From Promethearchaeota archaeon (lineage in GTDB: Archaea > Asgardarchaeota > Lokiarchaeia > Sigyniarchaeales > SOKP01), in NCBI GenBank assembly GCA_048938025.1, contig JBHLMP010000042.1:1-32485 (forward strand): a stretch of DNA of 32,485 nt, written 5' to 3'. A program made the position numbers and the translations under genes. Position 1 is the stretch's first letter. Each line of letters opens with the position of its first letter. Of this stretch, positions 1 to 31,426 are shown piece after piece. The notes beneath the pieces were generated by a model. The model ran no database searches and had not been told where the DNA came from. It saw nothing but the letters and a program-made list of their open reading frames with translations.

Positions 1-1722
1 AGTCTTGGATTTGAAATTGATGATTATTTTGAATTCGTGTGTACAGAATTAGATATTACTGAATTAAATAGTGTGTTTGGTGGAGATTGGGCAACTAATG
101 TAGGATATTATATGTGGTGGAGTGGTAGTGTAGCACCGAGTGCTCTTGGTCAGAAGTCCAAATTTGCAATTGTTAATATTACGGATCATCCTACTTATAC
201 TGATTGGTGGCGAATTACTTATGATGGATGGGGATGGATAGATAAAGTTAATTCTTTTGGAGTTACTCCAGTAAGAGATGATTACAGTTATAACATCCCT
301 ATGAATCCCTCGGGAGAACTTTGGAATCCCAGTGTGTGGATAATAGGAAGACCAGTAAGTGTATACCTTGCAAATGTATCATATGACACGGGATACTCCA
401 TCTATGAAAATATTATTTATTACACTGGAACCGACATAGGAAATTTCGAAGTGAATTGGATTTATGATGAAAATACTGGTATAGTAAAGAATTTTGTGAT
501 TAAAAACGATGTTGATACTGTTATTTTCGAATTATGGGGATTTGAGCTAAAAATCCAACCCATTGAAACTTATAACTGGATTGTAACCGAATTAAATACA
601 GCGGAATTAGAAGATGTTTTTGGATCGGATTGGGATTTAGATTTAAGAAATACTTATTGTTGGTGGGCGTTAAATGTTCCGTCTGAAGTGGGTAATAAAT
701 CAAAATTAGAAATAGCTTCTGTTTTAAATCATCCTAGTCTCGATGATTGGTATCAATTTTATGTGGATGGATGGAATTGGAAGGATAAAGAATTATTACA
801 CGGATTATTACCAGATAGAGATGATGTAACATATAGTTTGCCTATGGATCCAACTGGAGTTTATTGGAATCCATCTGTTTGGCTAATTGCTACACCTGTG
901 GTAACATTTTTAGAGGAACTTTCATATTATGGTGGAACTAGTGCTTCAGGAAAGATAGTAACCGAATCAAATACTGATGTTGAAGCTTATGAAGCTATAT
1001 GGACTTATGATGAAAATCTTGGTGTTACAGAGCTTTTCCAAATTAAAAATTCAGCAGGTGACACCATCTTTGAGGTAATTCTCCTCGAGTTCAAAATTCC
1101 TGTTGGAAGTGAATTCGAATGGAAAGTGAGCAAATTAAATACTGGTGAATTGGAAAATGTATTTGGAGTTTCTTGGGAAACTGATATACAATCTCTTTTT
1201 GGAACAGATTGTAATCAGATTGATGCTAAAATGAAAAGAAAAATCAATGACATCATCTTAGACGGGAGCGTATGGTATGTATATTATGATGTATGGGATT
1301 GGACTGCTAATAGTTTTAGCTCAGAACCGAATTATACCACAGGCACGAGTTTATATTGCGATCCTGAAGATGGATTTTGGGGAAGTTGGATATGGTTTGT
1401 ACCAGTTCCTGCTTATTATTATTTAGTAGGACGTTCATATACCGCCGGAACTGAATTATCTGGGTTAACCGTTATTCAAAATGACACTGCTATTGAAGAT
1501 TTTCAAATAAAATACATATATGATGAAATTCTTGGTGTTTATAAGACCGTTCAGCTACTTAATGATGGAAATACTGTAATCTTTGAATATAATCTAATAT
1601 CTGCTAAAGCAGATAAGGATGGAGATATACCCGGATATGATTTATATGTATTAATAAGTACAACGTTCCTGATTATCGGTTTTTCATCAATAATCTTTTA
1701 CAGGAAATTAAAAAAATACTAA
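1..1722 (+). CDS. Cell-surface protein with three ~175-aa tandem domains and a Loki-CTERM/PGF-CTERM-like sorting tail (5'-partial)
   Basis: Frame is open from base 1 (SLGFEIDDYFEFVCTEL...). Repeats start xTELxxxELxxVFGxxW and end with IFE. C-terminus is IPGY + hydrophobic helix + RKLKKY. Confidence 0.75.
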   Translation, partial: SLGFEIDDYFEFVCTELDITELNSVFGGDWATNVGYYMWWSGSVAPSALGQKSKFAIVNITDHPTYTDWWRITYDGWGWIDKVNSFGVTPVRDDYSYNIPMNPSGELWNPSVWIIGRPVSVYLANVSYDTGYSIYENIIYYTGTDIGNFEVNWIYDENTGIVKNFVIKNDVDTVIFELWGFELKIQPIETYNWIVTELNTAELEDVFGSDWDLDLRNTYCWWALNVPSEVGNKSKLEIASVLNHPSLDDWYQFYVDGWNWKDKELLHGLLPDRDDVTYSLPMDPTGVYWNPSVWLIATPVVTFLEELSYYGGTSASGKIVTESNTDVEAYEAIWTYDENLGVTELFQIKNSAGDTIFEVILLEFKIPVGSEFEWKVSKLNTGELENVFGVSWETDIQSLFGTDCNQIDAKMKRKINDIILDGSVWYVYYDVWDWTANSFSSEPNYTTGTSLYCDPEDGFWGSWIWFVPVPAYYYLVGRSYTAGTELSGLTVIQNDTAIEDFQIKYIYDEILGVYKTVQLLNDGNTVIFEYNLISAKADKDGDIPGYDLYVLISTTFLIIGFSSIIFYRKLKKY

Positions 1723-15882: not shown

Positions 15883-16668
15883 ATGGCTGTTTCGAGAAGA
15901 CTATCAATTATATTTCTACTATTTTATGTTTGTGTTATAATTTACTTATTATTATATTTATTTGTTCCTGATTTTCAAGATGCTATTAATAATTCAAGAC
16001 AAAAATTAGCATATATAACAGAAGGTACAAATTATTTTTGGGCTCTATTTATCTCCTTTATTATTTGTCTTGTTGGAAGTGCTAGTATCGGATTTCCTGT
16101 GCCATTTCCCTTTATACTCTTTTTTTTCTCAAATTCAATCATCACAGAATTTGGGCATAGTGGTTTAATACTAATCTTTGGACTTGGGATAGCTGGTGGG
16201 CTAGGTGCTGCTTTAGGCGAACTTACAAGTTTTTTATTGGGAAGAGGAGCTCAGAAAATTGCTTCAATATCTGAGTCAAAAACTTTAGAAAATGTTCAAG
16301 GGTTTGGTAGATTAGTTTTAGACCATCCAAAAAGTATGTATCTATATATATTCTTAGCAGCAGCTCTTCCAATTCCAGATGATCCGCTATGGATAGCTTT
16401 AGGAATGTCAAAGGAAAAAATAAATTTTTTTAACTGTCTTCTTTTTGGATGGATTGGTAAAAATTTTACAACCTTATTTTATGTTTTTCTTCCTATTTTG
16501 ATTAATTTAGGAATTTCTGCATCTGAAGTCGAACTTAATGATGTTTCAAGCGTTATAACTGAAGCTTTAATGCTTATAGTTACACTTACCATTATGTTTT
16601 TCATTCTGGCATTTGATTGGAATAAGTTTATTGATAAAAGAAGTAAAACAAAAGCTAAAGAACGTTAA
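15883..16668 (+). CDS. DedA/VTT (SNARE-associated) family membrane protein
   Basis: PVP, GAALGELTSFLLGRG and AALPIPDD...ALG...GK motifs. Confidence 0.8.
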   Translation: MAVSRRLSIIFLLFYVCVIIYLLLYLFVPDFQDAINNSRQKLAYITEGTNYFWALFISFIICLVGSASIGFPVPFPFILFFFSNSIITEFGHSGLILIFGLGIAGGLGAALGELTSFLLGRGAQKIASISESKTLENVQGFGRLVLDHPKSMYLYIFLAAALPIPDDPLWIALGMSKEKINFFNCLLFGWIGKNFTTLFYVFLPILINLGISASEVELNDVSSVITEALMLIVTLTIMFFILAFDWNKFIDKRSKTKAKER

Positions 16669-17404: not shown

Positions 17405-18526
17405 TTAAGCGAGAAAATTTAGTTCTGCTCGAGAATTTAGCTCTTCCAATATTTTATTATACTCAGAACTTCTTTCTTCAAAATATTCGATTATTTTTCT
17501 CTCATTAGTATCTAAGTAATCATAATAAGGAAATATCACTTCTATCCGTTTAGAAAAATCTTTGATTAATCGGTCATACCATTCATTAGGTTTTTTCAAC
17601 ATATTTTTGACTTTTTTTTGCAGTTTTTCTTTTCTTAACTTATATTTTTCATGTTCATTCTTTTCGATTAATTTATCTAACTCGTCATAACTATCGGATA
17701 TTAACTTCTCTAACTTTTCCCTAAATTTAGGAATTCGATATGATTTTTTGAAAAAAGCAGGATCCCACTCATATAGATAGCGTTCATCCATTCCAGCTTC
17801 TTGCTCATTATCAGTCACTATAATATCTTCCTTAGGTACTAAAATTAATCCGAAATTTCTTTGTATTTGAGCCAGTGCTTTCTTACGGAGTATCTGATCA
17901 ATATAATTAACTTCATCTATTACTTTTTCCATGTTTTTATTGATTTTATCTATTTCTTCTTCAGAATTTTTAAGCATTATTTCTTTCTTTAACTCGTATT
18001 TCAATTCGATAAGATCATAAGTAGAAGAAATACCTCTATTTGGATCCTTTAATCTTAACCCAGCTATTCCTAAAAAATGTGAATCTGATTTTCTTTCACA
18101 ATGATCGAAGACTAATCCAAGAGCGTAAGGATTCGGGATTTGGTAACCTAATTGAGTCATACAATCAATTGGAGAATAAAAAAAACCAAAACCTGGATGT
18201 GTATGCCACCAACCAATTATAAAGTCATTTCTTTTGTCTTGGATAGATCTTTCAAAGACTGAGGCATCAATTTGCGCCATATCAACGTATTGTTTATTTT
18301 CATATTTTACACCTGCTCTATCTCCAACTACCATTGGAATTGCATCTTTTATTATAACTTCAGCTTCATTTTCTATTGATCCTATTAAGATGCCATATAC
18401 TTCACGCCATTTACTCTCATCTAAATGATCATTTGCATATCTTATAGCATAACCACAAATTTTTCTATATGCTTTATAAGTTAAATGAGCAGGTGAATAA
18501 TAAGGATCTACCTTTTTCTTTTTCAT
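17405..18526 (-). CDS. MPN+/JAMM metalloprotease (Rpn11/CSN5-like) with long helical C-terminus
   Basis: EVYGILIG and GWWHTHPGFGFFYSPID, an intact E...HxH-x7-S-x2-D motif. Confidence 0.88.
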   Translation of the reverse strand: MKKKKVDPYYSPAHLTYKAYRKICGYAIRYANDHLDESKWREVYGILIGSIENEAEVIIKDAIPMVVGDRAGVKYENKQYVDMAQIDASVFERSIQDKRNDFIIGWWHTHPGFGFFYSPIDCMTQLGYQIPNPYALGLVFDHCERKSDSHFLGIAGLRLKDPNRGISSTYDLIELKYELKKEIMLKNSEEEIDKINKNMEKVIDEVNYIDQILRKKALAQIQRNFGLILVPKEDIIVTDNEQEAGMDERYLYEWDPAFFKKSYRIPKFREKLEKLISDSYDELDKLIEKNEHEKYKLRKEKLQKKVKNMLKKPNEWYDRLIKDFSKRIEVIFPYYDYLDTNERKIIEYFEERSSEYNKILEELNSRAELNFLA

Positions 18527-22477: not shown

Positions 22478-23710
22478 CTACTTTTTTGCTAATTTTTCTA
22501 TAGCAGATTCAATCATGTTTAGTTTAATTGAGTATTTTTCCATAAGTTCAGCGAACTTATCAACATCAATTTCTTTATTTTCTTTTAATAATTTTAACTC
22601 GTTTATTGTTCTAACTATTGCAGCTCTCTTATCTGCTAATTTTTCACGTTTACTGTATGGAATTTTTTGTTCTAATTTTTTTCTTTGAAAAGAATTGAAC
22701 CTCTTTATATTCAAATCTTTTGGCACGAATTTTGTTAAATAAATTGTTGATTTTGGCACAAACGGGGCTAAATTCTCTGGAATTATAATTATAGGTTCTG
22801 GATCTTGGATTTTCTTAATATCTTCATACTCTAATTGTTCCACATCACTCTCTTGAAGATTCTCCTTTACTATTGATAAATTTAAATCTATGTTTTCTTT
22901 TTCTTCACTTGAAATTGGAAGATTTTGAAGCATATTTTCCCAAATATCTCTTGCTTTAATAAAATACCATAGTGCTTTTTGCTGCAGTTTTCTGACTTTT
23001 TCTTGATTTATGTCTGTTAGTGAGGATTCTAATGATGCCTTAGCTTTAAGAGAGCATGATTTTCCCATATCATAGTGAAATTGTGCTCTTATTTGTTGTT
23101 TTTTTCCCTCTTCATGCTTCTTTAAATAGAATAAACGTTTTGATAAAGCAGAAAGTCCTGAATACAATTTCGAAGCAAAGTATATATTATTATTATTTTC
23201 TTCCTGTAAAGCTGAGATGCTCTGAGCTAAAATTCTAGCTTCCTCAGAATTTAATTCAAGATTATCAGAAGATAAACTTATACCTTTATCATTTTGATAA
23301 ATAGCTGCTGCGGAAAAATATGCAGCAGTTTTATATATTTTGCTACATTCGGTCATTGCAACAATAGAATTCTCCCATTCTTCATCTTCTTCAAATTTTT
23401 CGGAAAGTTGGGAATAAGCTCTTGCCATAACCCATAATACCCTTCCACACTCAAACATTATATCTTGAATTTGAACTTCTCGATTCTCAATCGGATCATA
23501 AAAAATAGGGGTTATATCTAGATCCTTTAAAATTCTTCTATGACTTTCACTTTCATAGTTAATATTCAATATTTTAGTATATTCGAGAATAAAATTTAGA
23601 TCATCTAAGTTAAAGTGTTCATCTTCTTTTTCTAATGCCCCTTCTATTTTTTTAATTGAGAAGTGAAGATACCTAATACGCTGCATTAGTTCATCTGGAA
23701 AAAAAGACAT
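22478..23710 (-). CDS. Putative BRO1-domain protein with C-terminal Vps23/TSG101 steadiness-box-like hairpin
   Basis: FYDP...IMFECGRVLWVMARAYSQL, KTAA, ILAQ and SKL in BRO1 order; AIVRTINEL...IDVDKF at the C-terminus. Manual comparison only. Confidence 0.6.
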   Translation of the reverse strand: MSFFPDELMQRIRYLHFSIKKIEGALEKEDEHFNLDDLNFILEYTKILNINYESESHRRILKDLDITPIFYDPIENREVQIQDIMFECGRVLWVMARAYSQLSEKFEEDEEWENSIVAMTECSKIYKTAAYFSAAAIYQNDKGISLSSDNLELNSEEARILAQSISALQEENNNNIYFASKLYSGLSALSKRLFYLKKHEEGKKQQIRAQFHYDMGKSCSLKAKASLESSLTDINQEKVRKLQQKALWYFIKARDIWENMLQNLPISSEEKENIDLNLSIVKENLQESDVEQLEYEDIKKIQDPEPIIIIPENLAPFVPKSTIYLTKFVPKDLNIKRFNSFQRKKLEQKIPYSKREKLADKRAAIVRTINELKLLKENKEIDVDKFAELMEKYSIKLNMIESAIEKLAKK

Positions 23711-26586: not shown

Positions 26587-27966
26587 ATGTCATCACAAAT
26601 GGAAATAGAAGTAAAAACGGAATCTCCGCCTCTTATTAATTATTTACAGCAAGAGATCCCCCTTGAGGATATAAGAGATTATGCCTCTCCAAGACGTATA
26701 ACTTCTATAGATTTTCTTAAAGGATTTGCGATAATTTTTGTGATTTTGGCACACACTTCTCAAGGATGGCTTGATTCTGAATCTAGATACCTTTATGGAC
26801 TCTTATTTGCTTTGTTAGATATTCTTGGACCCTCATTATTTGTATTTCTCTCAGCACTTAGTGTAATATTTAGTATTAAAAGAAAAGAGGGTGTCTTACC
26901 GAATAAGATAATCCGAAATCGTATTTTTACACGAGGAATAGTAATGATAATTATTGGAATGATTACTAATTTAGTAGGTATTGATCCCGCAACAGGAGAA
27001 GTTGTTGTAATTATTTTTGGTTGGAATATTATTACATTTATAGGATTTAGTCAAATAATTTCTTTCTATATATTAAAAATTAAAAAGAAGTGGCGTATCG
27101 TAATTGGTTTATTAATTATTATTAGTTCCCCTTATATTCGAGCATTTCTTTATGAAGGTAAAGAAGCGGGAAATATACTAATAAGTTTCTTTCATTATAT
27201 TGTAACTTCACCCACTCCTCATTTAACGCTCATCCCATGGATTTCAATATGTTTTATTTCTACCATTTTTGGTGAATATATTTTTGAAGCTATGAATAAA
27301 GGAACAGATGATGCCTATATAGGATTATTCCGAATATTTTTAGTTTGGGGAATGACCTTCATCATAATAGGAATTTTTGCACCACTTCCCAATTTTGGTT
27401 TTGAATTACAAACTGCTGATACTATTGTAGGAGGGTTCGCTGAATATCCTCATTTACATTTATTAGAAGTCGCTAATAACCAAGATTTTTTTGAAATTCC
27501 TGGAATGCCATTATTTCTGATAAGAGGAACAAGTGCTAATATGTTTTATAACCAAGGTTCGGCATTGACTATAATTGCAATATTTTTTTATTTTATTGAT
27601 ATTAAGAAGAAATCAAACGATTTCACTAATGTATTGATATATTATGGTAAAGTCTCCTTAAGTCTATTTCTATTACATTTTTTATTTATACCTCTTTTTA
27701 TTGATCGATTTGGAGTAGCGCTATATCTTATTATTGGTCTTTCATATGTAGGATTTTTAGGAATTTTAATGTATATTTGGATGGAATATGCCAATGGAGT
27801 GGGTTCACCCGAATATCTTATGGTGCAGCTTGGGAGAATTGGACAGAAATCAGGAGAAGCAGTTAAGAAAACTACTAAAAAAGTATATGTTAGAATCAAA
27901 AAGCACGAAAGAGTCAAAAAGATGGAAGATTTTATGAAAAAGTTAAGTAAAGACAAAGAGAATTAA
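26587..27966 (+). CDS. Transmembrane acyltransferase, HGSNAT/DUF1624-like (paralogue 1)
   Basis: RITSIDFLKGFAIIFVILAH, PSLFVFLS and YYGKVSL motifs; about 11 TM segments. Confidence 0.8.
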   Translation: MSSQMEIEVKTESPPLINYLQQEIPLEDIRDYASPRRITSIDFLKGFAIIFVILAHTSQGWLDSESRYLYGLLFALLDILGPSLFVFLSALSVIFSIKRKEGVLPNKIIRNRIFTRGIVMIIIGMITNLVGIDPATGEVVVIIFGWNIITFIGFSQIISFYILKIKKKWRIVIGLLIIISSPYIRAFLYEGKEAGNILISFFHYIVTSPTPHLTLIPWISICFISTIFGEYIFEAMNKGTDDAYIGLFRIFLVWGMTFIIIGIFAPLPNFGFELQTADTIVGGFAEYPHLHLLEVANNQDFFEIPGMPLFLIRGTSANMFYNQGSALTIIAIFFYFIDIKKKSNDFTNVLIYYGKVSLSLFLLHFLFIPLFIDRFGVALYLIIGLSYVGFLGILMYIWMEYANGVGSPEYLMVQLGRIGQKSGEAVKKTTKKVYVRIKKHERVKKMEDFMKKLSKDKEN

Positions 27967-27990
27967 AAATTAATTCAAATGATATCTTAA

Positions 27991-29256
27991 ATGAAAACTA
28001 CACAATTTTTTTTTATTTTTGCCTGTGTAACAAATTTTTGTTACTTAATTTTAACCTTTTTTTTCTTCTATTTCTTAGATAATCCTATAATGAATAAAGA
28101 TAATAATGATTTCCTAACTTTTTATAACGCAGGTTTAATTGTTATAAAAGATTTACCCAATTTATATAATCCTTCAAAATATCTTTTTCCATTCAGATAT
28201 TTCCCTCTATCCGCATATTTTTTTACTCCTTTCTCAATGTTAGGACTTGAAGTAGGATATTTTGTTTTTCAAATTTTCAGTTTTCTGATGAATATTACTA
28301 TCATTTATCTCATTTATAAGATTATCCAATTATATTCAAATTTAAACAATCTCAATTATGAATTAGACAATTTTAGAGATCTCTATAATAAACCCGAGAA
28401 TAACAGTATTCTTTATCAATCCGCTATATTGATAATAATGCTCCCTCAATTTATGAATTATTTTTTAGGGCAAATCAATACTTTAGTTTCTATTTTTATT
28501 CTTACTTCAGTCTTTTATTTTTTAAAAGAAGATGATAAAAGTAACTTTATTGGAGGTTTAATGTTAGGATTTGCTATCCTAATTAAACCCACCCTTTTCC
28601 TCCTAATACCGTTTATTTTACCCTTATATTACTCAAAAAACACTAAAAAAATTGACTTTCAATTTAAAACAACAATTATTAGGCTTTCTGGTATATTAAT
28701 TCTAATGCTAATCTCTAGTATTTATTTTATAATTTCCCCTAAATTGCTAGAAGGCTTTATTGAGGTTAATTTTACAGGAAACTACACTACTATTATTGGA
28801 AACTTAGATATAAATGCTTCTTTTAGTCTTACTCGAAACCTTATAACTCTTTTTCAATTGATTGAGTTCAATGTTAACAATTTTATTCTTTTTTTAATAA
28901 TTATTTTATCATTTATGCTTCCAATATTAATATATTTTGTAATTTCATCGAATAAGACAAATAGATTAATTGAAGGATATTTAATTGGAATTAGTATTAT
29001 ATTAATCACCTATTATGATTCTTGGCCACATTATCTAATTATATTAACCCCTTTCATAATTATTTTTATCTTAATTAATAAGAATTTTAAATATTATAAT
29101 ATAATTAGATTTGTTCATCATTTTTTGGCTATATTAGTTGTAATATCATGGGGTATCTTTTATATTTCCTATGAATTCTTTCCATTCAATTTATGTGGTT
29201 TGATCTTATTAATTCTGCTTTATTTTACGTTAATTATTTTTTATAAGCAACAATAA
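27991..29256 (+). CDS. GT-C glycosyltransferase, family 87 (DUF2029)-like
   Basis: DFLTFYNAG, FRYFP, GQIN, AILIKP and WPHY motifs. Confidence 0.8.
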   Translation: MKTTQFFFIFACVTNFCYLILTFFFFYFLDNPIMNKDNNDFLTFYNAGLIVIKDLPNLYNPSKYLFPFRYFPLSAYFFTPFSMLGLEVGYFVFQIFSFLMNITIIYLIYKIIQLYSNLNNLNYELDNFRDLYNKPENNSILYQSAILIIMLPQFMNYFLGQINTLVSIFILTSVFYFLKEDDKSNFIGGLMLGFAILIKPTLFLLIPFILPLYYSKNTKKIDFQFKTTIIRLSGILILMLISSIYFIISPKLLEGFIEVNFTGNYTTIIGNLDINASFSLTRNLITLFQLIEFNVNNFILFLIIILSFMLPILIYFVISSNKTNRLIEGYLIGISIILITYYDSWPHYLIILTPFIIIFILINKNFKYYNIIRFVHHFLAILVVISWGIFYISYEFFPFNLCGLILLILLYFTLIIFYKQQ

Positions 29257-29334
29257 TAAAGAATTAAAATAATATCTTCTTAATTTTTTTTAATCTTTAT
29301 TTAAATTAGTTTTAATTATAATTGGATAATCATA

Positions 29335-30663
29335 ATGTCATCTACAAATGAAAAAGTTCAAAGCGTAGAAACGCCACCACTTGTGGAATATTTAAAAGAA
29401 GAGATTCCTATCGAAGATATTAGGGACGTATCATCACCTAAGCGAATTGCTTCAATAGATTTTGTTAAGGGTTTTGCTATGTGTTTTATAATTTTAGCAC
29501 ATTCTGCACTTGCATGGTTTGATGATGATTGGAGGTATATATATGGTCTTGTTTTTGCTTTTTTAGATATATTGGGTCCCTCCTTATTCGTTTTTCTTTC
29601 AGCTCTTAGTGTTATCTTCAGCATTAAGCGAAAGAAGGGCAAACAATCTCCTAAAATTATACGTAATCGCATTCTAACTCGGGGACTAATTATTATTATA
29701 ATAGGTATACTTTTTAATCCAATGTCTTTATATACTGCAGGTGAAGATATTCCCTTTCCTTTGAATTTTTGGGGTTGGAATTTTCTTGTGTTCATAGGTT
29801 TCTCACAAATTTTTTCTTATTACGTGCTAAAGATTAAGAAAATTCCTCGTGTAGTGATTGGTATTATAATTATAATTATTTCACCTATCATTAGACAATT
29901 TATCTTTGATAATAAAGATACTAGTGTCGGTTTTTTGATCTTACATTTTTTAATAACTTCACCTCTCCCTCAAGTACCAGTTCTTCCTTGGCTCGCAATT
30001 TGTTTTATCTCTACAGTATTTGGTGAATATTTATATGATGCAATGATTAAAGGAACAGAAGAAGCGTATTATCATTTATTTCGTATATTCTCATATAATG
30101 GGATTATTCTAGTAATAACGGGGCTCATACTTGGTTGGAGATTACAAACTCCAGAAACAATAGAATTATCAGAATATTTACATTTAGATTTATTAAGAAT
30201 TGCAAATCAACAGGATTATTATCATTTTATTGGAATGCCAGATTTCATGATAAGAAATACAATGTCAAATATGTTTTATAATCTAGGTGCCGCACTTCTT
30301 ATCATTGCAGTTAGTTTTTATTACATTGATATAAAGAATAAATCTAACCAATTCTCAAAAATGCTTATATATTACGGGAAAGTTAGTTTATCACTATTTT
30401 TAATTCAATATCTGTTTCTTCCCTTATATATTGGACAATTTTCAATAATATTTTTCCCTATTATGTGGGTTGCTTATTGTGGATTTCTTGGTTTAATGAT
30501 GTATTTATGGATGGAGTATTTTAATGGAGTAGGTTCTCCTGAATGGATAATGGTTCAACTTGGGAGAGTAGGACAAAAAACAGAAGAATTTGTTAAGAAA
30601 GAAACTCATATGATGGCAGAAAAGGCAAAAGAAAGTATTCACAAACTAAAAAAAGAGGAATAA
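29335..30663 (+). CDS. Transmembrane acyltransferase, HGSNAT/DUF1624-like (paralogue 2)
   Basis: RIASIDFVKGFAMCFIILAH; collinear with paralogue 1 and sharing LDILGPSLFVFLSALSVIFSIKRK. Confidence 0.8.
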   Translation: MSSTNEKVQSVETPPLVEYLKEEIPIEDIRDVSSPKRIASIDFVKGFAMCFIILAHSALAWFDDDWRYIYGLVFAFLDILGPSLFVFLSALSVIFSIKRKKGKQSPKIIRNRILTRGLIIIIIGILFNPMSLYTAGEDIPFPLNFWGWNFLVFIGFSQIFSYYVLKIKKIPRVVIGIIIIIISPIIRQFIFDNKDTSVGFLILHFLITSPLPQVPVLPWLAICFISTVFGEYLYDAMIKGTEEAYYHLFRIFSYNGIILVITGLILGWRLQTPETIELSEYLHLDLLRIANQQDYYHFIGMPDFMIRNTMSNMFYNLGAALLIIAVSFYYIDIKNKSNQFSKMLIYYGKVSLSLFLIQYLFLPLYIGQFSIIFFPIMWVAYCGFLGLMMYLWMEYFNGVGSPEWIMVQLGRVGQKTEEFVKKETHMMAEKAKESIHKLKKEE

Positions 30664-30904: not shown

Positions 30905-31426
30905 TTGCAGTCCGGTCAATATAAATTTAAAATAACTTTATTTGGACCAGGTGGAGTAGGAAAAACATCGTTACTTCTCCGCTATATTAAGGATTACTTT
31001 AGCGATGATTTAAAAAAAACCATTGGAAGCAATTTTCTGATCAAAGATGTTGAAATTGAAGGGAAACAAGTCCGCCTTCTTCTATGGGATATCGGTGGTC
31101 AACCACAATTTCATAAATTGCGTACAATTTATTTTAAAGGAAGTAATGGTGCATTAGGAGTTTTTGATTTATCATCAAACCAATCTCTTTTAAAAATTCC
31201 TGGTTGGATAAGCTCTATAAATAAATCAGTTAAAAGGAGAATCCCGATGATTCTATTAGGAAATAAACTTGATCTAGGGAGAGATGTTGATAAAGCAGAA
31301 GCTGAGGATTTAGCTAAAAGATTAAGTTGTGAGTATTTAGAAACTTCCGCGAAAACAGGAGAAAATGTTGAGCTAGCTTTTAAGTCAATTGCCAAAGCAT
31401 GCTTAAGCAGTGCTCTTTCGGAATAA
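30905..31426 (+). CDS. Rab-like small GTPase
   Basis: G1 GPGGVGKT, switch I TIGSNF, G3 WDIGGQ, G4 NKLD and G5 ETSAK. Confidence 0.92.
   Translation: MQSGQYKFKITLFGPGGVGKTSLLLRYIKDYFSDDLKKTIGSNFLIKDVEIEGKQVRLLLWDIGGQPQFHKLRTIYFKGSNGALGVFDLSSNQSLLKIPGWISSINKSVKRRIPMILLGNKLDLGRDVDKAEAEDLAKRLSCEYLETSAKTGENVELAFKSIAKACLSSALSE

Follow-up and report, generated by a model that had tools for sequence, protein, structure and literature searches.

The headpiece of eukaryotic ESCRT-I consists of three hairpins packed together, and ALIX, one of the eukaryotic Bro1 proteins, binds CHMP4. For the archaeal relatives of eukaryotes, the presence of only one major upstream recruiter of ESCRT-III is disputed in print, namely that of Bro1/ALIX. 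ESCRT-III regulators including Bro1 have been claimed in Asgard archaea on Pfam best-hit criteria (Eme et al., 2023, Nature, PMC10307638), whereas Bro1 has elsewhere been called "not identifiable" in these organisms (Makarova et al., 2024, mBio, PMC10936438). The text of the latter paper also describes multidomain Asgard proteins that carry a steadiness box (SB), namely Znr_PH_CC_SB, Vps22-SB and others (its Fig. 6B). The real novelty of the gene considered here lies in the combination of two known modules, a predicted Bro1 fold and a steadiness box, in one archaeal protein. No description of a Bro1-SB fusion has been found in running text, and the family may be drawn in Fig. 6B of Makarova et al. 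(2024) under another label such as TPR.

A conserved Lokiarchaeial protein family

The window, i.e., the whole stretch of 32,485 nucleotides that was analysed, derives from a Lokiarchaeia-type Asgard archaeon, and the product of the gene under study is otherwise "hypothetical". The open reading frame that had been proposed from the letters alone is present, and its features are collected in Table 1. A protein search has yielded 717 homologues at E<=1e-3; the best 120 of these 717 are 74-95% identical and every one is unnamed or "hypothetical". Of 68 sampled genomes from one Asgard family (Lokiarchaeial), 67 contain the gene, its short form being 64-95% identical, which indicates strong selection. 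A profile search with an HhH-free family alignment has retrieved solely close Lokiarchaeial homologues among the 120 matches listed, and a search with the distant homologue P0156 has returned two proteins. The datasets listed with the sequence comprise 20 of DNA (sediment and marine metagenomes) and none of RNA. Four short "homologues" (P0166, P0171, P0174 and P0176) have odd N-termini that suggest fragments or chimeric calls from metagenomes; they have been left out as evidence for other architectures.

Table 1. Coordinates and basis of the features of the gene in the window
Feature	Position	Strand	Basis
Whole gene, 410-aa protein with predicted Bro1 fold and steadiness box	22478..23710	minus	ORF list and translation; ATG start; stop codon 22478-22480
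Predicted Bro1-fold domain, aa 1-320: helices at the N-terminus, a beta-hairpin at 69-80, a helical solenoid at 84-286 and an extended segment at the C-terminus (299-320)	22751..23710	minus	AlphaFold, Foldseek, VIA-align
Beta-hairpin and first long helix, aa 69-103, motif "FxWxD...FExxxVLF" (FYDP...FECGRVLWV)	23402..23506	minus	strands 69-72 and 77-80 in model
Extended C-terminal segment of the predicted Bro1 fold, PEPIIIIPENLAPFVPK, aa 304-320	22751..22801	minus	model without helix or strand, pLDDT ~90
Two short helices and flexible basic linker, aa 321-353	22652..22750	minus	model pLDDT
Steadiness-box-type helical hairpin, aa 354-410: helices 354-377 and 383-409 joined by a turn at KENKEI	22481..22651	minus	models and hhalign

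The motifs quoted in the sequence-only reading lie where it had placed them (FYDPIENREVQ...AYSQLS at aa 70-103, YKTAA at 126-130, ILAQ at 160-163, ASKL at 179-182 and AIVRTINELKLLKENKEIDVDKF at 364-386), and they coincide with columns that are conserved among 25 aligned family sequences: D83, E87, R159, Q163 and L375 are each found in 25/25 sequences and D72 in 24/25. The BRO1 and TSG101 consensus strings with which these motifs were compared are those given in that reading. That the resemblance goes beyond chance follows from the fold search and from the profile-profile comparison with its controls.

The Bro1-fold domain and the C-terminal hairpin

A Bro1 fold combines an N-terminal beta-hairpin or sheet, a boomerang-shaped TPR-like helical solenoid and an extended C-terminal segment that packs back on it, and the AlphaFold model (mean pLDDT 87.8, pTM 0.75) conforms to this fold. 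The top 16 PDB entries found by VIA-align have all been Bro1 domains (Z 20.8-22.7, rmsd 3.6-4.4 Å, 270-297 of ~360 residues aligned, model 1..320 against chain ~22..348/361), and the best other fold, SRP68-RBD, has reached a Z of 12.2. Likewise, each of the 18 Foldseek rows shown among the first 20 ranks is a Bro1 domain (E 1.4e-6 to 1.2e-4), with sNASP next at 1.5e-2. Judged by these models, residues 1-320 are predicted to adopt the Bro1 fold of ALIX, Bro1p, HD-PTP and BROX, and the gap in Z to the next fold bears out the original proposal of a BRO1-like N-terminus as opposed to a generic TPR solenoid. One detail of that proposal has had to be given up: the segment PEPIIIIPENLAPFVPK, which had been regarded as a Pro-rich linker, is no linker and lies inside the Bro1-aligned range 1..320, the flexible linker being found at ~327-353 instead. 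No other motif of the family is as invariant as this segment (P306, P311, E312 and P319 25/25, N313 24/25). Also invariant are E156, R159, Q163, G185, L186 and R192, all of which map to helices 148-196 by alignment and model, a patch that, by residue offset, may correspond approximately to the CHMP4 site of ALIX. At the beta-hairpin motif, the distant clade reads W-E-D in the alignment (IPVEWED and IPEQWED in P0153 and P0156, respectively).

Pfam BRO1 (gathering score 35.1 bits) has no match on the studied protein at E<=10 and is matched by one of the 25 family members, P0156 (E=3.2e-8, 33.3 bits, just under the cut-off), which aligns full length to the studied protein (E=1.2e-22) and carries a precomputed PF03097 label. 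Across 301 Asgard genomes the Pfam BRO1 cut-off is passed in none, and the 68 sampled genomes of the host's Asgard family contain zero matches; the weak matches found in 3 of the 301 all come from other Asgard families, and the ORFs concerned are missed by the family Bro1 HMM and have no SB tail. The ESM Atlas cluster to which the protein belongs bears the automatic name "putative BRO1 domain-containing protein", and clusters of eukaryotic BRO1 and PalC come next (0.81-0.85), which is a lead only. Searches of PDB sequences have returned nothing relevant for the studied protein alone (NifH, E 0.76), HhH proteins only for the full family profile, due to N-terminal extensions, and no match for P0156; with the family profiles, no ALIX, BROX, TSG101, Vps23 or Vps28 chain has appeared at E<=10. 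A Profilin match at aa 131-202 (E=0.0015, 19.1 bits against a cut-off of 25) has been rejected, as this stretch is all-helical inside the predicted Bro1 fold. Weak Pfam matches to MIT, TPR_8 and TPR-S occur in a few family members.

Behind the linker, whose mean pLDDT amounts to 69, 53 and 51 in the successive 10-residue blocks of aa 321-350 and drops below 50 at 346-352, the C-terminal ~60 residues form an antiparallel helical hairpin in the predicted models (rmsd 1.1-2.3 Å to ESCRT-I core chains), with helices that are alike in the full and the tail-only model (pLDDT 91-97). Structure alone cannot assign this tail, since Foldseek has found nothing at E<=0.001 for the tail alone (chains of the ESCRT-I headpiece or core fill 9 of the 10 top rows, all at E>=0.4), and since the VIA-align scores of ESCRT-I chains (2f6m_C Z 9.6, 2caz_A 9.2, 6vme_F 9.0 at 25% identity) are tied with those of unrelated hairpins (phage-integrase coiled coils Z 8.9-9.1, CdvA 8.6). 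The reference for a profile comparison was built from 28 of the 30 Asgard segments passing the cut-off of PF09454 (Vps23_core). Against these 28 SBs, the tail profile has scored 54.8 in hhalign (P=2.4e-11, Prob 97.3, 59 ungapped columns), compared with 15.4 for the reversed SB, 16.1 for the reversed tail, and maxima of 14.0 for 47 windows of the Bro1 part, 12.6 for ESCRT-III windows and 15.2 for 100 column shuffles. Taken class by class, the tail scores 46.9 against the Vps23-like and 41.0 against the Znr_CC_PH_SB segments, and the accepted classes score 51.1 and 46.1 against each other; the tail of the studied protein as a single sequence reaches 26.7 (Prob 69). Judged by the profiles, residues 354-410 are homologous to the SBs of Asgard Vps23-like and Znr_CC_PH_SB proteins, so that the steadiness box of the sequence-only reading has held up against a plain coiled coil.

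PF09454 itself (26.8 bits) is matched at E<=10 neither by the whole protein nor by aa 331-410 or 301-410 alone, nor in a whole-genome scan; of 19 family tails scanned singly, one matches it (E=0.056). An HMM of the Asgard SBs places the studied protein 239th of 263 reported ORFs (E=92) and its same-genome paralogue 5th of 12,822 ORFs (E=0.004), and the tail HMM, run against the 12,822 six-frame ORFs of the genome, finds just the studied protein and this paralogue. No ESCRT-I chain has turned up when PDB sequences were searched with the tail profile, which has given MarR (0.027). The SB HMM further shows the same type of hairpin at the end of non-ESCRT proteins of the host genome, i.e., a ribophorin-I homologue, an IFT52-GIFT-domain protein and a coiled-coil protein. 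This shows the steadiness box to be a docking module of wide use in these genomes; it may be a general oligomerisation module, and for the same reason the hairpin alone does not place the protein in ESCRT-I.

Possible roles of the fusion

In the sequence-only reading, a protein that would bridge ESCRT-I directly to ESCRT-III had been inferred from the two modules; the more specific model of a two-module adaptor, which links an ESCRT-I-type hub to ESCRT-III independently of ESCRT-II, has in our estimate an even chance of being correct. In this model, the SB hairpin would pack on other SB hairpins (Vps28 N-terminus, Znr_CC_PH_SB, Vps22-SB), as in the eukaryotic ESCRT-I headpiece, so that the Bro1 module would be held on an ESCRT-I-like assembly. 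There, the conserved helices 148-196 of this module might take up a short helix or peptide as a ligand, the likeliest candidate being the conserved C-terminal helix of the core ESCRT-III protein, by analogy to ALIX and CHMP4, and through the HhH-headed paralogues the same module could be anchored to nucleic acid. The host genome encodes Vps28 (contig C48, 218 aa), two Snf7-family proteins (contig C82, 213 aa; contig C5, 187 aa), Vps4, Vps25 and EAP30, the C-terminal helix of ESCRT-III is conserved in 18 orthologues, and the Znr_CC_PH_SB orthologue of the host genome (contig C5) adjoins an ESCRT-III gene. A complex prediction for Bro1 aa 1-325 with the C-terminal 64 residues of the core ESCRT-III has given "no answer" (score 0.00 in both runs) and speaks neither for nor against the model.

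A second explanation, to which we assign a smaller but still substantial share of the probability, accepts both folds and places the job outside ESCRT: the Bro1 scaffold would serve another peptide, and the SB-like hairpin would act as a general dimerisation or tethering module, e.g., one linked to chromatin or nucleic acid. Such a function would suit the hairpins that end the Ribophorin_I, IFT52_GIFT and coiled-coil proteins, and it would suit the genomic setting, as 0 of the 29 scanned ORFs match an ESCRT family (the gene had indeed been described as lying away from any ESCRT cluster in the window) and no ESCRT gene stands beside the studied gene here or in 11 same-genus loci. It also draws on the long homologues, 10 of 14 of which carry an N-terminal HHH_5 domain in Pfam that recurs weakly in the host genome's own paralogue (E=0.0037); these HhH-bearing paralogues hint at a nucleic-acid-linked role that has no eukaryotic Bro1 parallel. 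Finally, Bro1-fold relatives in another Asgard family (E=8e-25 to the Bro1-part HMM) end in a different, non-SB C-terminus, from which it follows that the Bro1 and SB modules are not obligately coupled. On the other side, all solved relatives of the fold are ESCRT-III-binding Bro1 domains, the tail is as near to the Vps23-like and Znr_CC_PH_SB steadiness boxes as these classes are to each other, and a full ESCRT set is encoded in the genome.

It appears improbable that the tail is instead a short C-terminal oligomerisation hairpin of the SHOCT type, whose likeness to the SB would come from a shared G-x-I-S/T-x-x-E-F/Y turn motif. Of 19 tails scanned singly, two do match Pfam SHOCT (best E=0.0043) and two the SHOCT-like DUF1707, as compared with one for Vps23_core (E=0.056); the SB HMM also finds a SHOCT-matching 169-aa protein in the host genome, and there is a faint resemblance between the SB and the SHOCT profile (hhalign 28.2, P=2.2e-5). 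However, the tail scores 22.9 over 39 columns (Prob 41.7) against 16 above-cut-off Asgard SHOCT segments, well below its 54.8 over 59 columns against the SBs; the SB alignment extends beyond the turn to cover both helices, and the tail of the studied protein has no SHOCT (PF09851) match at E<=10, so that SHOCT is not the better match among hairpin families. In a further alternative, which the sequence-only reading had named as its own refutation, a generic solenoid of the TPR type would carry a plain coiled-coil tail, and the motif matches would be due to chance. This alternative could call on sNASP, LGN and KLC in the fold lists (about Z 9-10) and on the weak MIT, TPR_8 and TPR-S matches, but it is already contradicted by the fold searches (270-297 residues aligned at Z 20.8-22.7 for Bro1 domains, with the N-terminal beta-hairpin region and the extended C-terminal segment covered, against <=190 residues at Z <=10.5 for TPR proteins) and by the tail comparison (controls <=16.1 against 54.8), and is highly improbable.

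If the adaptor model is extended, the family may represent a working Lokiarchaeial ALIX-like ESCRT branch with Bro1 built into an ESCRT-I-type SB hub, so that both eukaryotic routes to ESCRT-III (ESCRT-I/II and ALIX) would have come from one archaeal adaptor system and the HhH paralogues would couple the module to DNA, e.g., scission with chromosome clearance at division; this wider scenario is speculative and, in our judgement, rather unlikely. A confidently predicted Bro1 fold joined to an ESCRT-I-type assembly hairpin, found in 67 of 68 sampled genomes of one Lokiarchaeial family, offers a concrete, clonable candidate, with which the question of whether Bro1 recruitment of ESCRT-III predates eukaryotes becomes testable by simple binding assays.

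Comparison with eukaryotic and Asgard systems

With the eukaryotic Bro1 domains (PF03097: Bro1p 1zb1; ALIX/PDCD6IP 2oew, 3c3o, 2oev; HD-PTP/PTPN23 3rau, 5mk0, 5crv; BROX 3r9m, 3zxp, 3um3) the archaeal protein shares the predicted fold, the pattern of motifs that follows the beta-hairpin and a Pro-rich, extended segment at the C-terminus, and with BROX also the overall size (solved BROX chains have 376-389 residues). It differs from these domains by its low identity of 10-14%, below the Pfam threshold, and from the eukaryotic Bro1 proteins in that a V domain, PRR, phosphatase domain and CAAX part are all absent from it. None of the listed eukaryotic Bro1 proteins is known to be fused to an SB hairpin, and the combination is not known from any eukaryotic protein. 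With the ESCRT-I Vps23 core (PF09454; yeast Vps23 2f6m, 2f66, 2caz, 2p22; human headpiece 6vme) it has in common the ~57-residue C-terminal hairpin, which superposes on ESCRT-I chains with an rmsd of 1.1-2.3 Å over 58-67 residues and shows 25% identity to the 6vme chain. We read the best-matching chains as Vps23/TSG101 from their residue numbers (321-383, 312-383) and the entry titles. Unlike in Vps23/TSG101, the hairpin is preceded by the predicted Bro1 fold and not by UEV and stalk, and PF09454 is not passed. As far as its text goes, the Bro1 set of Eme et al. (2023) is Pfam-based, whereas Pfam BRO1 finds nothing in 68 sampled genomes of the host's Asgard family. Another archaeal parallel is provided by the Asgard proteins in the text of Makarova et al. 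(2024), in which, as here, an SB hairpin is appended to another module.

A predicted Bro1 fold in the N-terminal module

Direct searches of Pfam and of PDB sequences with the target protein have returned no BRO1 match, and its N-terminal module has instead been assigned by three independent lines that point to Bro1. The first is a bridging homologue, P0156, which aligns end to end with the target and matches Pfam BRO1 (PF03097) at E=3.2e-8 (residues 9-182 on profile positions 33-208) with a score of 33.3 bits, below the cut-off of 35.1; none of the other 24 aligned family members has such a match. The second is fold comparison. With the AlphaFold model computed from the 25-sequence alignment (mean pLDDT 87.8, pTM 0.75), Foldseek has retrieved nothing other than Bro1 domains as far as rank 20 (E 1.4e-6 to 1.2e-4; chains include 1zb1, 3rau, 2oew, 3zxp, 5mk0, 3r9m and 3c3o), the first non-Bro1 fold appearing at E 1.5e-2. 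In VIA-align, 16 Bro1 entries have been superposed on residues 1..320 of the model with Z 20.8-22.7 (rmsd 3.6-4.4 Å, 270-297 residues); the best non-Bro1 fold has reached Z 12.2 over 171 residues. The third, to be read as a lead only, is the ESM Atlas, where 'putative BRO1 domain-containing protein' is the name given to the target's cluster, and eukaryotic BRO1 and PalC clusters come next (0.81-0.85). Since these lines agree on Bro1, a generic TPR solenoid, whose representatives stay at Z ≤10.5 in VIA-align, has been rejected, and the BRO1-like domain proposed by the sequence-only reading stands as a predicted fold.

The segment formerly described as a Pro-rich linker has turned out to be part of this fold: aa 304-320 (PEPIIIIPENLAPFVPK) fall within the Bro1-aligned range, are extended and placed with confidence in the model, and contain the invariant residues P306, P311, E312 and P319. 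Invariant polar residues (E156, R159, Q163, R192) are located on helices 148-196, which we take, by alignment offset and not at residue level, to be the rough counterparts of the CHMP4-binding helices of ALIX.

A steadiness-box-type C-terminus and related hairpins

Pfam Vps23_core (PF09454), the steadiness-box (SB) profile, has matched neither the target protein, nor its tail (aa 345-410) alone, nor the target ORF in a whole-genome scan. Matches occur in 75 of 301 genomes, over the cut-off in 26; the 12 weak ones in the window's own taxonomic family all lie on ORFs of 658-729 aa, never on the target family. As reference, the 28 of 30 segments above the Vps23_core cut-off have been used (23 Vps23-like, 2 Vps28 N-termini, 3 Znr_CC_PH_SB). 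Against this set, the family tail has scored 54.8 in profile-profile comparison (P=2.4e-11, Prob 97.3, 59 ungapped columns), the controls being 15.4 for the reversed SB, 16.1 for the reversed tail, ≤14.0 for 47 segments of 66 aa taken along the helical Bro1 region, ≤12.6 for ESCRT-III windows, and 9.5 on average with a maximum of 15.2 for 100 column shuffles. With single classes the tail scores 46.9 (Vps23-like), 41.0 (Znr_CC_PH_SB) and 19.2 (Vps28-N); comparisons among the accepted classes give 51.1, 46.1 and 22.1; 16 Asgard SHOCT segments above the Pfam cut-off give 22.9 with the tail, and SB and SHOCT profiles 28.2. Judged by these profiles, the tail belongs with the steadiness boxes, themselves faintly SHOCT-like, which upholds the C-terminal SB originally proposed.

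Taken alone, the tail of the target itself (P0001) scores 26.7 with the SB set (Prob 69), and a plain SB HMM places the target ORF 239th of 263 reported (E=92); a paralogue on contig C65 of the same genome ranks 5th of 12,822 ORFs (E=0.004), directly after Vps28 (E=0.0015). Single-sequence Pfam scans of 19 tails have yielded SHOCT and DUF1707 twice each and Vps23_core once. The predicted tail structure (tail-only model, pLDDT 87.2) is consistent with the SB call without deciding it: ESCRT-I headpiece/core chains fill nine of the ten top Foldseek rows, at E≥0.4, and in VIA-align their scores (2f6m_C Z 9.6, 2caz_A 9.2, 2p22_A 9.1, 2f66_A 9.0, 6vme_F 9.0 (25% identity)) are level with those of integrase coiled coils (9.1, 8.9) and of CdvA (8.6).

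The EAP30-Vps25-Vps4-Snf7 cluster of this genome is found on contig C82, Vps28 on C48, and a Znr_CC_PH_SB orthologue, which has no Pfam match besides Vps23_core, on C5 together with an adjacent second Snf7-family gene. None of these ESCRT genes is near the target gene, and none of 29 window ORFs scanned matches an ESCRT family, in line with the earlier remark that the target is encoded away from any ESCRT cluster in the window. The Asgard SB HMM has also detected SB-like C-termini (E 4e-4 to 5e-3) on a ribophorin-I homologue, an IFT52-GIFT-domain protein and a coiled-coil protein (4e-4 to 0.02 including a 169-aa protein). By these matches the hairpin is therefore a widely reused C-terminal module, which agrees with the accessible text of Makarova et al. 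(2024) on Asgard SB multidomain proteins.

Family distribution and genomic setting

A near-length search with the target has returned 717 proteins at E≤1e-3. The source labels of target homologues read Promethearchaeota or Lokiarchaeota, which marks the genome as an Asgard one of Lokiarchaeia type. The best 120 of the 717 share 74-95% identity, and none of the 120 has a precomputed Pfam domain or a name beyond 'hypothetical'. Among 1.84 billion cluster representatives, 56 match at E≤1e-3, and 14 of them are longer (511-767 aa), with the target-like match beginning at residue 78-358 and, in ten, an N-terminal HHH_5 helix-hairpin-helix (HhH) domain. The C65 paralogue consists of a short HhH head, the Bro1-fold part and the SB part; the ORF downstream of it has no Pfam match. 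P0150, P0153 and P0156 are distant full-length relatives (24-27% identity). At E≤1e-5, 72 of 301 sampled genomes of the phylum have a match: 67 of 68 genomes in the window's own family are positive, as are four of five in family f18, weakly and in the N-terminal half only; with the target query, no match occurs in its sister family within the order (0/7) or in the remaining families sampled. The two f18 proteins match the target family's Bro1-part HMM (E=8e-25 in G020, 6e-24 in G041), and their Bro1-type N-terminal domain is followed by an acidic repeat linker and a different, non-SB C-terminal domain. As these relatives end differently, and weak Pfam-BRO1 ORFs from other lineages are unrelated to the target family and devoid of SB, the Bro1-SB fusion looks confined to one family and a small distant clade.

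The target ORF and all strings quoted from it earlier have been recovered at the residues named. Its neighbours are a membrane ORF of 159 aa, convergent with it, and an ATP-grasp gene, divergent from it; each adjoins the target in 10 of 11 same-genus loci. The window, which is contig C53 of a 3.52-Mb genome (88 contigs, 96.7% complete), is AT-rich (GC 0.24-0.35). Among its genes are housekeeping ones of archaeal type (thermosome, PTH2, TruD, AspRS-type synthetase) and one for a Ras-family GTPase, which is among the eukaryotic signature proteins typical of Asgard archaea. The JAB1/MPN protein may be a deubiquitinase-type enzyme, and the genome encodes ubiquitin-ESCRT parts. The VTT domain family is the one to which VMP1/TMEM41/Tvp38-type membrane proteins belong.

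Features of the window, of other contigs of its genome (C) and of excerpted loci (L)
Feature	Location	Strand	Details
Target ORF	window 22478..23710	-	410 aa, ATG start, clean ORF
VTT-domain match, sub-threshold	window 15883-16668	+	261 aa; E=5.2e-7, 30.6 bits (cut-off 33.9)
JAB1/MPN-domain protein	window 17405-18526	-	373 aa; JAB E=4.7e-9, Prok-JAB 4e-6
Three co-directed membrane-enzyme genes	window 26587-30663	+	GT87-family glycosyltransferase between two HGSNAT_cat/Acyl_transf_3 paralogues
Ras/Rab-family small GTPase	window 30905-31426	+	173 aa; Ras E=1.1e-46
Znr_CC_PH_SB orthologue	C5:35911-38076 (L063:7927-10080)	+	717/722 aa; SB HMM E=7.9e-14, Vps23_core E=0.03
Second Snf7-family gene	C5:38314-38772 (L063:10210-10773)	-	convergent with Znr_CC_PH_SB orthologue
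Ribophorin-I homologue, SB-like C-terminal hairpin	C48:75362-77227	-	622 aa; Asgard SB HMM
IFT52-GIFT-domain protein, SB-like C-terminal hairpin	C20:4715-6124	+	470 aa; Asgard SB HMM
Coiled-coil/low-complexity protein, SB-like C-terminal hairpin	C21:4755-6029	+	425 aa; Asgard SB HMM
SB-like hairpin protein	C70:9243-9749	+	169 aa; Asgard SB HMM; Pfam SHOCT E=3.9e-4
Target paralogue, HhH-headed	C65:2590-4125 (= L066:2590-4125)	+	511 aa, 44% identity
ORF 72 bases downstream of paralogue	L066:4197-4745	+	182 aa; N-terminal hydrophobic helices
f18 Bro1-type protein, genome G020	L061:1044-2576	+	511 aa
f18 Bro1-type protein, genome G041	L062:1040-2569	+	511 aa

A possible adaptor between ESCRT-I and ESCRT-III

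The folds and homologies of both modules have been established from sequence profiles and predicted structures, and from them we infer two binding steps. The hairpin of the target would pack into a bundle with the SBs of Vps28, of other SB proteins or of both, and the Bro1 module would bind the conserved C-terminal helix of ESCRT-III, so that the target would act as an adaptor linking an ESCRT-I-type hub to ESCRT-III while bypassing ESCRT-II. This is the most likely reading, and we hold it with a confidence that is evenly poised. The main rival, less probable and still to be reckoned with, retains the same folds and assigns a non-ESCRT ligand to the Bro1 part and a merely oligomerising role to the tail; it is favoured by the HhH-bearing paralogues and by the promiscuous use of the hairpin. 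The interpretation offered from the sequence alone, with its putative bridge between ESCRT-I and ESCRT-III, is supported in part, namely in its Bro1 and SB domain calls.

As far as their accessible text goes, previous studies have claimed Asgard homologues of Vfa1, Vta1, Ist1 and Bro1 (Eme et al., 2023, PMC10307638), have described many Asgard SB-bearing multidomain proteins, suggested their docking on ESCRT-I SB motifs and been unable to identify Bro1 homologues (Makarova et al., 2024, PMC10936438), and have reported Asgard SB proteins with Y2H contacts to Vps28 and Vps22 (Hatano et al., 2022). No description of a Bro1-SB fusion has been found in the literature on archaeal/Asgard Bro1 and the steadiness box through 2025-26, whose supplements and figures may list the family, e.g., as 'TPR-SB'; the accessible parts of a structure-based ESP preprint, a 2026 PNAS review and a 2025 MK-D1 ESCRT preprint do not mention an archaeal Bro1-SB protein. 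Set beside these systems, the target combines known modules in a new arrangement, the function of which is directly testable.
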